Below are positions 1 to 4,083 of a stretch of 4,337 nucleotides of DNA, in pieces. Source of the DNA: a virus. Its lineage: Duplodnaviria; Heunggongvirae; Uroviricota; Caudoviricetes. The position numbers were made by a program, and so were the translations under genes. Location of the stretch: the IMG/VR virus record IMGVR_UViG_2648501165_000001; one strand, 5' to 3'. Within the stretch, counting starts at the first letter, position 1, and each line of letters begins with the position of its first letter. The notes below the pieces were generated by a model. That model was not told the DNA's origin. It did not search any database and saw only the letters and a list, made by a program, of their open reading frames with translations.

Positions 1-601
1 CCTGCGGCGGTTCTGGTAGCGGCATCCAGTGGGTTACTCCATGCCATATACCAGTTAAGGTTTCAAACCTTGGCTCTCTGCCTTTCTGTGTCTTGGCATA
101 TTCATTCCTTGTATATACGCATTGTCTAACTGCATATTCATTCCATCCAATAACTGTTTGTCTAATTTCTGGCATTCGCTCACTACAGCTTATCCAACCA
201 TCCAGAATTACCGGAGAGTTGCCAGCCTCATACGCCACACGCATCCAGTGCATAAGCGTTTCAGTGCTCACACATCCGCAATCAACGTCTATTTTTTCTT
301 TTTGTTCTGACAACCATTCCTGGAATGACAGCTTGGCAGTCTGGCTTGCTGGCTCAATTCGTGGCAGGCCGATATATAGCGGTACATTTCCCGGATCCAT
401 CGAATTGTCGGGACAAATAAACGTGTTACAACCATATTTAACGAGCTCAATTCCCGCGGTGTCGATAGTGGCGAATGGTTCAGCGGTCAATGCAGTCAAC
501 GCAATTTCATAAGCACGGCGCTCAATATTGTCCCGCACCCCCAGACTGCTGATATGTTCTTTAATTTCTTTAATTAGCTCTTTGTCGGTAATAGTGGTCA
601 T
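1..601 (-). CDS. DUF551-type prophage protein, N-terminal ~200 aa; C-terminus lies beyond the left window edge
   Basis: Minus-strand frame is open from ATG at 601..599 to the window edge (200 codons, no stop). AAGGTGA Shine-Dalgarno (plus 609..615) sits 7 nt upstream. My translation: MTTITDKELIKEIKEHISSLGVRDNIERRAYEIALTAL...DGWISCSERMPEIRQTVIGWNEYAVRQCVYTRNEYAKTQKGREPRFETLTGIWHGVTHWMPLPEPPQ. The W-I-S...E-R-M-P-E...T-H-W-M-P-L-P-E-P-P tail matches the signature I associate with DUF551 prophage proteins. It is absent from the supplied ORF track because it is incomplete; the plus-strand ORFs 93..512 and 122..310 are its antisense shadow. Confidence 0.75.
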   Translation of the reverse strand, partial: MTTITDKELIKEIKEHISSLGVRDNIERRAYEIALTALTAEPFATIDTAGIELVKYGCNTFICPDNSMDPGNVPLYIGLPRIEPASQTAKLSFQEWLSEQKEKIDVDCGCVSTETLMHWMRVAYEAGNSPVILDGWISCSERMPEIRQTVIGWNEYAVRQCVYTRNEYAKTQKGREPRFETLTGIWHGVTHWMPLPEPPQ

Positions 602-619
602 AGCTATTTCACCTTAATC

Positions 620-1108
620 TCAACATTTCGCANNNNNNNNNNTACTCATTCTCCTGATTTCCCAGAGCACACGAGGAATACCACCGTTTCCGACCGGATC
701 GCGTTTACTCCGCAGGGCGACGCTTGATTCCGCCCAGCTTTTTCTTGGAGGAAGCTCTTTCACACGAACAAAACCAGCTGCGCGAAGAGATGCTCCTGAT
801 TCATCTGCCTGGGTGTACGTAATACAACGTTGATAACCCATAGCTTTTGCTGCCCGCCAGACAGCACCATAAAGCGCGCTGTTAGCGTTGCGTTCTCCTG
901 TGGTACATGTGCGATTTACTTCAAGCGTTAATCCATCGTCCAAATGTCGTGCAACAGGTCGACCAGCTGTCGCCACACCTATCAATTCTCCGGCATTATT
1001 TCTCAGACCAATGCTGAATTTATGCCCCACTGGTGGTTTATTGTGTCGGTGGTGCTGTGCGATAAATTCCTGCGCCGCTTTCAGCGTTATAGGTGAAATG
1101 ACCATCAC
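620..1108 (-). CDS. Conserved phage hypothetical protein, 162 aa, with HHRH motif; possibly GNAT/acyltransferase-like fold; C-terminal end interrupted by an N-run
   Basis: ORF track 620..1108. GTG at 1108..1106 is followed immediately by ATG at 1105..1103 (MMVISPIT...), with AAGGAGGAG upstream (plus 1113..1121). The stop TGA (1107..1105) of the upstream Ea22-like gene overlaps this start region. The C-terminal half (NANSALYGAVWRAAKAMGYQRCITYTQADESGASLRAAGF) resembles the C-terminal motifs of GNAT-fold proteins by eye; this is unverified. The last ~7 codons span the 10-N run, so the true stop and C-terminus are uncertain. Confidence 0.7.
   Translation of the reverse strand: MMVISPITLKAAQEFIAQHHRHNKPPVGHKFSIGLRNNAGELIGVATAGRPVARHLDDGLTLEVNRTCTTGERNANSALYGAVWRAAKAMGYQRCITYTQADESGASLRAAGFVRVKELPPRKSWAESSVALRSKRDPVGNGGIPRVLWEIRRMSXXXXAKC
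634..643. other. Run of 10 ambiguous bases (N); assembly gap or masked bases
   Basis: Literal nnnnnnnnnn in the sequence at 634..643, inside the 3' end of the 620..1108 CDS. Confidence 0.95.
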
Positions 1109-1698
1109 TCAGACTCCTCCTTGATGCCAGCGGCGCTTGCTGATTCTTCATATGCGCGTTTAGCAGCGTTAAGGATTGCTGCCAGTGGCGTATAGCCGCC
1201 ATCCATTCGGATTGTGTTGTGGATGCCAGCCATTGTGTCGCGCAATTTGCTGTGGCTAGCAGACAGTTCTGCTATGCGCTTACTTCCATCCGCGATTACT
1301 CCCTCGTAATACTCGCGTTGCTCGTTGAGTTTTGATTTTGCTTCCTCAAGCTCAACACGCAGTTTCCCTACCGTTAGCGCAATATCCTCGTTCTCCTGGT
1401 CGCGGCGTTTGATGTATTGCTGGTTTCTTTCCAGCTCATCCAGCAGCGCCAAGACGGTAGCCGGATTGGCTGCGGCGATGAATTCAGCATTGGCCTGCTG
1501 TTCCATTTGGAAATCTTCATCGAAACCGCTTTCAGGATGCGCTCCTTCAATTCTGCAAATGGGAATATATCCAGCAGCCTCGCGATGAATTAGTGCATCA
1601 TCACCATCAAATCGGCTCTCTCCATATTCGAGAGACCACTCACCACACGTTGCTTTTTCTGCCTTTTCACGCAGTACCTGATAGTCAATCTTGCTCAC
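1105..1698 (-). CDS. Ead/Ea22-like family protein, paralog A (197 aa from GTG start)
   Basis: The ORF track gives 1105..1731 starting at an ATG with no ribosome-binding site. I prefer GTG at 1698..1696, which has a perfect AGGAGG (plus 1705..1710) 6 nt upstream and forms a GTGA overlap with the stop of the upstream gene. The N-terminus [21 protein letters not shown]... followed by a coiled-coil-like region (LALLDELERNQQYIKRRDQENEDIALTVGKLRVELEEAKSKLNEQ) fits the lambdoid Ead/Ea22-like family as I remember it. Confidence 0.75.
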   Translation of the reverse strand: MSKIDYQVLREKAEKATCGEWSLEYGESRFDGDDALIHREAAGYIPICRIEGAHPESGFDEDFQMEQQANAEFIAAANPATVLALLDELERNQQYIKRRDQENEDIALTVGKLRVELEEAKSKLNEQREYYEGVIADGSKRIAELSASHSKLRDTMAGIHNTIRMDGGYTPLAAILNAAKRAYEESASAAGIKEESE

Positions 1699-2818: not shown

Positions 2819-3406
2819 TCAGAAAGGAGGGTAATCGTTCTGGCTGTAACCATAATCATCTGCATGATTATGGCTTACGTTTTTAGAGCGATTGTCTTTA
2901 TCTTTGAGGCTGGCAACCATGTTGGCGATAGTTTCTGGTTGCTTGCCTTCTGCCTTTTCTTTAAGGGTTTGACCTGTTTGTGCAATAAACGGGATGCGTA
3001 TTTCCATCTGGTAGCTGTCTGCGCCAGTCTTTTTGTTTGTGGTTAATACTTTCTGGAGCACTAACCCGATTTTCTTTCCATGAAATTCAGGTGCAACAAA
3101 TTTACTGGCGGAAACCATATGTTGCGTTAATTGTCCAATCCCGGCACACCCCATCATGGCGTGAACGACATTTGCGCCAAATTTGTTTTCCGTGCCGTCA
3201 TTTTTCTGAACACAGACGCTAAGATACTGGATTTTACGTCCGTCGTCGGATTCTCCAGAAAACTCAATAAATTTGGCTCCTTTTTCTGATTGCTTGAGTT
3301 CTGCTTCAGTAATGGTAATTATGTGAGCGCCAGTTTCGTTAATAAAACCACCTTGCCCTGCGGTCAGTGCTGCTTCTTCGTTATAAGTAAAAATTACGTT
3401 GCTCAT
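2819..3406 (-). CDS. Putative phage ssDNA-binding protein (cognate partner of Sak4), 195 aa, with an SSB-like C-terminal tail ...DDYGYSQNDYPPF
   Basis: ORF track 2819..3406. Its ATG (3406..3404) overlaps the Sak4-like stop in an ATGA arrangement, with AAGGAA upstream. The C-terminus is acidic/aromatic and ends in P-F, like the partner-binding tails of bacterial SSB (DDDIPF) and T7 gp2.5. Adjacency to a Sak4-like ATPase mirrors the HK620 Sak4/SSB pair. The SSB assignment is an inference; the N-terminal region is not a canonical SSB by eye. Confidence 0.65.
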   Translation of the reverse strand: MSNVIFTYNEEAALTAGQGGFINETGAHIITITEAELKQSEKGAKFIEFSGESDDGRKIQYLSVCVQKNDGTENKFGANVVHAMMGCAGIGQLTQHMVSASKFVAPEFHGKKIGLVLQKVLTTNKKTGADSYQMEIRIPFIAQTGQTLKEKAEGKQPETIANMVASLKDKDNRSKNVSHNHADDYGYSQNDYPPF

Positions 3407-4083
3407 GCGGCGTTTTCCTTAATTTGATGAACATTATTGATGCCGTAGTAATCACAAACAGTGGCATCGACGAAAGAGAGATCGTTATCAATCTCATTGG
3501 AATCAAACATTCCCATTGGGGATTTAACAGTGTCTGCACCGTTGTTTTTCGTGGTGAAAAAGAACTGGTCATCGCGGGTAAGAGTGCGAAGAACTATAGT
3601 AAACATGCCTTCGACAGTGATTTTCTCGTCCAGCATTTTGCCGATAGTCTTCATTTTCACGCGCCCCATAGGGGTTTCTTCGGTGTGCGCAAGAAAATAG
3701 ACTCTCAGGTCATCAGGCGCATCCTGTGCAGCCTTAATGACCTCCCATGCGTGGCGGCCTATCTCAGTAAATTTATCAAACGATTTTTCTTCTGAGCGGC
3801 GCATAAACTCATTGCTCATCACATACTGGAAGTCATCAACAATAACGATTCTTTTTCCGTATTCGTGAGCACGCTTAATTACAGCAACTATTACGTCCCA
3901 TTTGTCAGTGGTAACTACGGTTCCTTTTTTTGCTCTGGCATCCCATGCAAGCCAGTTTTTTGATTTAAATGGTAGCGGCTTGCCTATTGGTTTTATAAGT
4001 ATTGCTTCCTCTGGATTGATATTTCTCATGCTGGTTGATTTTCCGGTGCCAGACTCACCGAGTATTAATATCGCAGTTCCCAT
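3403..4083 (-). CDS. Sak4-like (AAA_24-type, RecA-core) P-loop ATPase; phage recombination protein, 226 aa
   Basis: ORF track 3403..4083. GAGGTGA Shine-Dalgarno (plus 4087..4093) lies 3 nt upstream of ATG 4083..4081 and overlaps the stop of the upstream small gene. Walker A GESGTGKST is at residues 9-17 and a Walker B-like hydrophobic run RIVIVDD follows. Size and motif layout are typical of phage Sak4/AAA_24 proteins. Confidence 0.85.
   Translation of the reverse strand: MGTAILILGESGTGKSTSMRNINPEEAILIKPIGKPLPFKSKNWLAWDARAKKGTVVTTDKWDVIVAVIKRAHEYGKRIVIVDDFQYVMSNEFMRRSEEKSFDKFTEIGRHAWEVIKAAQDAPDDLRVYFLAHTEETPMGRVKMKTIGKMLDEKITVEGMFTIVLRTLTRDDQFFFTTKNNGADTVKSPMGMFDSNEIDNDLSFVDATVCDYYGINNVHQIKENAA

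Follow-up and report, generated by a model that had tools for sequence, protein, structure and literature searches.

The 4,337-nucleotide DNA segment analyzed here in full (the window; IMG/VR virus record IMGVR_UViG_2648501165_000001) carries on its minus strand a gene of the XF1762 family whose product is a Gcn5-related N-acetyltransferase (GNAT)-fold enzyme belonging to the clade of Mom, the DNA modification protein of phage Mu. The protein has a conserved Mom-type cleft, is basic, lacks the coenzyme A (CoA) loop motif, has no partner and is encoded in an early-left context. By analogy with Mom, and with moderate confidence, it is read as a stand-alone Mom-type nucleic acid acyl- or aminoacyltransferase of the early-left operon that would serve anti-restriction and whose product may differ from that of Mom. 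The protein would act alone, as Mom does, and would take an activated acyl group from a host metabolite, with aminoacyl-tRNA as the leading candidate by analogy with the Gly-tRNA(Gly) of Mom and acyl-CoA as the alternative. The acyl group would be placed on a base of a double-stranded nucleic acid, most likely replicating phage DNA, and the modified DNA would be a poorer substrate for host restriction nucleases.

Family membership, predicted fold and conserved residues

The open reading frame (ORF) at 620..1108 marks a real gene. Its product matches the NCBIfam equivalog NF045478 ("XF1762 family") at 207.4 bits against a cutoff of 50 (E = 7.5e-62), with residues 4-137 aligned to profile positions 2-130 of 143, and the identical protein WP_000237063.1 is named "XF1762 family protein" by RefSeq/PGAP. 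The protein also matches PHROG 1384, "Mom-like DNA modification protein" (E = 1.3e-43), and PHROGs 559 and 3339 match weakly over the same region. Annotation as XF1762 family or Mom-like is already public (PGAP, PHROGs) and is not new. Mom (PF25680; E = 2.6e-5) was the only Pfam family found; many close homologues carry a precomputed PF25680.2 assignment, and 25 of 54 longer family members match Pfam Mom at E ≤ 1e-4. PADLOC returned no defense-system match for the protein.

An AlphaFold2 model built from a 133-sequence alignment (pLDDT, 89.3; pTM, 0.82) predicts a GNAT fold without helix α2, consisting of a mixed β-sheet in which β4 and β5 are parallel, with the order β1-α1-β2-β3-β4-α3-β5-α4-β6-β7. 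The elements are β1 (residues 2-6), α1 (8-18), β2 (30-35), β3 (41-48), β4 (60-68), α3 (74-88), β5 (93-99), α4 (105-110), β6 (113-118) and β7 (145-151), and residues 119-144, between the last two strands, were modeled with low confidence. In a Foldseek search of the PDB, Mu Mom (8BV8) was the top match (E = 2.3e-8; TM score, 0.77), with generic GNATs next (TM score, ~0.65). When BFVD was ranked by structural similarity, a named Mom, a fusion with a polyvalent protein and several proteins of 400 to 700 amino acids annotated as endonucleases were among the first ~30 entries; most of the others were unnamed, and named generic GNATs appeared only from rank 34 on. Fusions of a Mom domain to an endonuclease are known in jumbo and other myoviruses (PMC7824862). 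The best BFVD matches include the GNAT domain of such 400- to 700-amino-acid proteins, labeled "endonuclease-like" or "homing endonuclease", which shows that the Mom-type GNAT is a recurrent DNA conflict module. These fusions carry a nuclease and are predicted to be self-contained modification-restriction units, whereas the XF1762 protein is a bare GNAT with no nuclease fused to it or conserved beside it.

Conservation was measured on sets of 135, 81 and 133 sequences. The H18-H19-R20-H21 motif (1043..1054, minus strand), placed by conservation counts, hhalign and the model, lies at the C-terminal end of helix α1. Among 135 diverse representatives, H19 is kept in 134 and R20 in 133, H21 is kept in 132 of 134, and H18 is a histidine in just 76 of 135. 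The HRH core is retained even in members with only 38-42% identity, carried by a Pelagibacter podovirus, Streptomyces phage Samy and a Vibrio virus without a tail. All family-invariant residues are present in the window protein: H19-R20-H21, G48-R49-P50, R53, D57-G58, T60, E62 and R65, and further along N73, S76, G90-Y91, T96-Y97, E102, G104 and S106. Within the family, R65 never varies, and conservation reaches at least 90% for E62, N73 and S76.

These four residues belong to a segment formed by strand β4 and the start of helix α3 (E62-V-N-R65 ... R72-N73-A-N-S76; 878..922, minus strand), delimited by hhalign and conservation. The segment lies where ordinary GNATs have their CoA pyrophosphate loop and reads T-G-E-R-N-A-N-S in the loop, versus D-M-P-R-N-S-E-S in Mom. 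A regular-expression search for that loop, [QR]xxGx[GA], within 16 residues after β4 found it neither in the protein nor in any of the 135 members. The isoelectric point (pI) is 10.5 for the protein, 9.9 as the family median and 10.0 for Mom. The insertion between β6 and β7 (residues 119-144; 674..751, minus strand), defined by model and composition, is basic, with 5 K/R versus 2 D/E, and contains the conserved W124 and R135; its pLDDT is 55-64, and it has only two helical turns of 3-4 residues.

An initial annotation, made from the letters of the window, had described a conserved-looking HHRH motif, a possible acyltransferase (GNAT)-like fold suggested by the C-terminal half and a candidate modification or anti-defense enzyme. 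The fold agrees with the model and the Foldseek search, which place Mom 8BV8 as the closest characterized structure, and the resemblance extends over the whole protein rather than one half. The motif holds as a near-invariant H19-R20-H21 core preceded by a variable first histidine. The functional proposal gains support from the sequence matches, as the only Pfam family found is the DNA-modifying, anti-restriction Mom and the PHROG name is Mom-like.

Comparison with Mu Mom and competing functions

Mu Mom takes glycine from Gly-tRNA(Gly) and attaches it to the N6 position of adenine in double-stranded DNA, and an on-base rearrangement then yields N6-carbamoylmethyl-adenine (PMC13219725). R111, S124 and R151 are essential; H58, Y59, D149, Y159, W48 and W181 are important, and activity is lost or strongly impaired in H58A (PMC13219725). 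Alignment of hhalign profiles of 81 XF1762 members and 64 Mom orthologues (E = 3.7e-4; probability, 36%; 121 columns; 17% identity) places H19, conserved here, opposite Mom H58, the invariant R65 opposite R111 and S76 opposite S124. E62, N64 and N73 are likewise shared, corresponding to Mom E108, N110 and N121, and the Mom signature E108-L-N-R111 ... R120-N121-S-E-S124 matches that of β4 and α3 described above. The tyrosine of Mom Y59 is not kept, and the residue at this place, R20, is itself near-invariant. Mom and the XF1762 protein have in common the GNAT fold without helix α2, a histidine at the end of α1, an extra segment between β6 and β7, the lack of a canonical CoA P-loop motif, a very basic character and a phage-encoded single gene without a partner. 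Within their common clade, the XF1762 family forms a compact sister group to the Mom family and is by far the larger branch.

Several observations weigh against the reading as a Mom-type transferase. The homology to Mom is remote, and the putative function is read solely from this remote homology. The hhalign probability is just 36%, pairwise BLASTP against Mu Mom was not significant (E = 0.23), and the family hidden Markov model missed 8BV8 among PDB sequences, although 8BV8 is one of them; phmmer against the same sequences gave chance matches only and also missed 8BV8. The Pfam Mom match scores 24.4 bits, short of the gathering cutoff (27.1), and extends over no more than profile positions 3-124 of 202; some relatives barely pass that cutoff (27.3-28.1 bits). 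At the level of residues, the essential R151 is replaced by Q99, D149 by Y97 and Y159 by L107, all three in a low-confidence region of the hhalign alignment, and W48 is replaced by K9. An alternative register, with D-E placed on D101-E102, still sets S103 opposite Mom R151, and D101 is variable. The ~40-residue N-terminal extension of Mom, including its basic segment 11-19, is absent, and M1 aligns to Mom L40. The essential helix-turn-helix (HTH)-like insertion of ~35 residues in Mom is represented here by the 26-residue basic loop at the same place in the fold, and the two are not alignable. In Mom, W48 lies at the dimer interface, the basic N-terminal segment contributes to activity, and removing the HTH-like insertion (~175-209, between β6 and β7) abolishes activity (PMC13219725).

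Biological evidence also runs against the reading. The XF1762 gene is apparently early, in an early-left operon, whereas mom is late and tightly regulated. The mom gene of Mu is a late one under the control of Com, Dam and OxyR, and no com-like gene lies upstream of the XF1762 gene. To our knowledge, which does not rest on an exhaustive search, no unusual base has been reported in lambdoid or Shiga toxin (Stx) phage DNA. A full-text literature search found no work on the XF1762 family and no experiment for any member. Domain fusions involving C5 or D12 DNA methyltransferases, PAPS-reductase, recombinases or polyvalent-protein modules are suggestive, but they are rare (one or two each of 54) and could be gene-calling artefacts.

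Further differences concern length and family-specific residues. The XF1762 protein has 163 amino acids, versus 241 in Mom, at ~12-17% identity, and it lacks the 8-residue β3-β4 insert of Mom. W124 follows β6, as W181 does in Mom, with no alignable equivalence, and global hhalign into the C-terminal insertion gave no reliable columns. Conversely, R20, H21, G48-R49-P50 (GRP), D57-G58 (DDG) and E102 are XF1762-specific invariants missing from Mom.

These differences count against a narrower form of the favored reading, in which the protein would be a true Mom equivalent that uses Gly-tRNA(Gly) to glycylate N6-adenine in double-stranded DNA and so forms N6-carbamoylmethyl-adenine. Mom is the closest characterized relative by both profile and structure, conserved residues correspond to its essential R111 and S124 and to H58, and the XF1762 gene, like mom, is a single gene without a conserved partner. 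Equivalence is nevertheless unlikely, given that the essential R151 and also D149, Y159 and W181 have no identifiable counterpart, that the same is true of the W48 dimer contact and the basic N-terminal region, and that the HTH-like insertion needed by Mom is absent or heavily reduced. The separate set of invariants and the Pfam score under the curated cutoff point the same way.

An RNA- or tRNA-directed GNAT is likewise improbable. Such an enzyme would acylate or consume aminoacyl-tRNA or other RNA, for host shut-off or tRNA-defense interference, and would leave DNA unmodified. The donor site of Mom-type enzymes is thought to bind the CCA end of tRNA, and Mom can be superposed on TacT, a toxin that acetylates tRNA, and on FemX, the precedents for GNAT binding of this end that were used to model the Mom donor site (PMC13219725). 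The very basic character of the protein is in keeping with an RNA target, the part that is missing is the HTH-like insertion, the proposed DNA-binding element of Mom, and the early operon is rich in host-directed functions (abc2, kil, cIII). However, no GNAT-toxin or other Acetyltransf family was matched at E ≤ 1, the PADLOC search was negative, and neither an adjacent antitoxin-like gene nor a conserved neighbor was present; moreover, the recurring fusion partners and neighbors are DNA methyltransferases rather than RNA enzymes. FemX-type transferases, which have duplicated GNAT domains, and the TacT and AtaT toxins have the GNAT fold in common with the XF1762 protein but no detectable sequence relationship to it. 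A toxin-antitoxin system of the TacT/AtaT type was considered and rejected, with no Pfam or PADLOC match and no antitoxin or conserved neighbor in 38 loci.

It is decidedly unlikely that the protein is an ordinary N-acetyltransferase that uses acetyl-CoA to modify a protein or small molecule, such as a host defense or repair protein, a polyamine or an antibiotic-like compound. Mom has been reported to bind acetyl-CoA, with a Kd of ~49 uM (PMC7261163), which would be in line with such a donor. Against this, no Pfam acetyltransferase family was matched, [QR]xxGx[GA] is absent from all 135 members examined, and the conserved residues are of the Mom type. The family pI of ~10 also argues against it, since a pI near 10 is unusual for metabolic GNATs. 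Canonical acetyl-CoA GNATs (RimI, phosphinothricin acetyltransferase, the NatA catalytic subunit and 1y9k of B. cereus) gave no sequence-family match to the protein; they carry the loop motif and are acidic or neutral, whereas the XF1762 protein lacks the loop, is basic and has the extra β6-β7 insertion. A catalytically dead or structural GNAT-fold protein, for example a DNA-binding protein or a decoy, is very improbable even though several Mom catalytic residues are missing and the gene is accessory, because ~25-30 polar or glycine positions, including those on the Mom active-site cleft, are near-invariant across thousands of clusters, a pattern typical of an active enzyme.

Given that one essential residue, several important residues and the HTH-like insertion of Mom have no counterpart and that the family conserves invariant residues of its own, its donor, target or product may differ from those of Mom.

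Gene boundaries, operon context and distribution

The window is a segment of a lambdoid or Stx-type (Sepvirinae) prophage. Leaving aside a run of ten N's, it matches the E. coli 95NR1 chromosome at 99.97% identity and Escherichia phage TL-2011a (JQ011316.1) at 99.7%. The ORF list made by program contains a minus-strand ORF at 620..1108, from which the initial annotation took a protein of 162 amino acids with a C terminus made doubtful by the N-run. The minus-strand gene is real, but its start and length differ. Both the GenBank and RefSeq annotations begin at ATG 1105-1103 (MVISP...), and GTG at 1108 was ruled out as the start, since both annotations and the family N termini favor ATG 1105. 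The translation start region (1103..1121, minus strand), read from the sequence, comprises this ATG and a Shine-Dalgarno sequence, AGGAGG, at 1121-1116, 10 nucleotides upstream. The A of the ATG (1105) is also the last base of the TGA (1107-1105) that ends the upstream Ea22-like gene, and the coding sequence boundaries in JQ011316.1 likewise overlap by one base (2672).

Codons 1-154 of the XF1762 gene (MVISP...EIRRMS) occupy 644..1105 on the minus strand, as delimited by the ORF list, NF045478, PHROG 1384 and the JQ011316.1 product. The N-run (633..642, no strand) stands for 193 nucleotides, 2017-2209 in one of the two near-identical records, by exact matching of its flanks to both, and these contain the last nine codons and stop (TAGIRIKGE*) and most of a downstream ORF of 63 amino acids. 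Positions 620..632 (minus strand), which correspond to 2004-2016 of the same record, are outside the XF1762 gene and constitute the 3' end of this hidden ORF (...LRNVEIKVK*), read out of frame. Because the N-run replaces 193 nucleotides and 620-632 belong to another ORF and frame, the tail "XXXXAKC*" is an artefact and was rejected as the C terminus; the doubt expressed about it was well placed, and the public records supply the size of the gap. From the near-identical record JQ011316.1, the complete product has 163 amino acids and ends ...RRMSTAGIRIKGE / ...EIRRMSTAGIRIKGE*. The coding sequence table of that record lists 1988-2179 for the 63-amino-acid ORF and 2181-2672 for the XF1762 gene. 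The hidden ORF (MNGQISIVRPGACDDREIRM...VEIKVK) is without a Pfam match and lies one base downstream of the XF1762 stop.

Every sizeable gene in the window is on the minus strand, and stop and start codons mostly overlap or abut. From right to left, the genes are an ORF of 66 amino acids, which is the rightmost, an AAA_24-type (Sak4-like) ATPase (3403-4083), an ORF of 195 amino acids without a Pfam match (2819-3406), the anti-RecBCD gene abc2 (2499-2795), a DUF2737 gene (2321-2521) and two Ead/Ea22-like genes (1695-2324 and 1105-1698/1731), followed by the XF1762-family gene, the N-run and a DUF551 gene. In the matching records (JQ011316.1 and 95NR1), N, cIII and kil lie upstream of the XF1762 gene and xis lies downstream. 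A search of both strands of the window for sigma-70-like promoter sites found 0, versus 6.3 ± 3.0 expected from shuffles. The packed minus-strand unit, the flanking N, cIII, kil and xis genes and the lack of a promoter match together indicate an early-left operon. The promoter-less window fits one long polycistronic early-left transcript, and we infer co-transcription from pL.

Other features of the operon were observed alongside the XF1762 gene. The 195-amino-acid ORF, located between abc2 and the ATPase gene, may encode a single-strand-DNA-binding or annealing partner of the AAA_24 ATPase, judged by position. A direct repeat of 57 nucleotides with 89% identity, its copies 626 nucleotides apart (1659-1715 and 2285-2341), covers two gene junctions, each with the upstream protein end ...KGGNQ*, the GTG start of an Ea22-like gene, (V/M)SKIDYQ, and a GTGA overlap. 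The repeat resembles a module boundary that recurs between the tandem Ea22-like genes and might serve as a recombination linker. The DUF551 gene (2-601, minus strand) is a single open frame of 200 codons that runs off the left end of the window; its counterpart in the two closest public records is annotated in two pieces or labeled a pseudogene, and TL-2011a has a 1-nucleotide indel near position 485. Outside the window, the 95NR1 prophage encodes a "Nmad5 family putative nucleotide modification protein" (11033-11656 of its matched stretch) ~4 kb upstream in the same operon, which is a second candidate nucleic acid-modifying gene there.

Across phages, the surroundings of XF1762 genes vary. 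In a survey of 38 dereplicated IMG/VR viral loci, BLAST clustering of the three genes on either side found no conserved neighbor, the largest cluster being a terminase in 3 loci, and a Pfam scan of the 128 neighbors within two genes found no family in more than 3. The absence of a conserved neighbor in these loci fits a one-enzyme system like Mom. E. coli prophages, phi1026b, prophi68-1 and Samy carry the gene within early or replication modules, and in ZF40 and HTVC034P it lies between lysis and packaging genes. A DNA methyltransferase gene adjoins it in phi1026b and is nearby in prophi68-1. The 128 neighbors also include one CBASS inhibitor Acb3 and one Acb2/Tad1 hairpin domain, both anti-CBASS, which indicates that the XF1762 gene can sit in anti-defense islands. 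The overall picture is of a self-sufficient accessory gene of variable phage regions, loosely tied to DNA modification.

Members of the XF1762 family are encoded by tailed phages from many phyla and also by a Vibrio virus that has no tail. In an exhaustive phmmer search against representatives clustered at 50% identity, 3,295 clusters were matched at E ≤ 1e-3 and 2,199 at E ≤ 1e-10. Of 5,426 complete E. coli genomes, 144 carry the allele in the window (≥90% nucleotide identity), which sits at 131 places on chromosomes and 20 on plasmids. In Vibrio phage 10N.286.55.F1_PE001 (Vinavirales, non-tailed Tectiliviricetes), a frameshift or stop divides the XF1762 gene (1489-1984 of the matched stretch) into two ORFs. 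In Pectobacterium phage ZF40, the "Mom-like" gene gp36 (4046-4453 of the matched stretch) has an annotated start MHRHNKPP..., and the tblastn match opens ~18 codons upstream, suggesting that the annotated N terminus is truncated and probably wrong.

Implications for Mom-like enzymes and E. coli prophages

"Mom-like GNAT enzymes" have been named by the authors of the Mom study as the next field to explore (PMC13219725). The XF1762 family is a good test case, being a larger and more compact branch that keeps counterparts of the Mom-essential R111 and S124 and lacks both R151, the remaining essential residue, and the part believed to grip DNA. The gene resides in a well-studied, genetically tractable E. 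coli prophage background, and a compact, partly stripped Mom-type fold in such a setting means that simple experiments could show whether DNA is modified, and with what. If the protein does not modify DNA, the finding stays a correctly annotated accessory gene. If it does, the result would matter for how restriction is evaded and for how sequencing signals are interpreted in Stx and lambdoid phages. More tentatively, the family could represent a minimal, partner-free Mom-type enzyme whose nucleic acid modification is not that of Mom, with another donor, another base or an RNA target. If this is true, an unnoticed DNA or RNA hypermodification activity would be encoded by lambdoid and Stx prophages that are common in E. 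coli.

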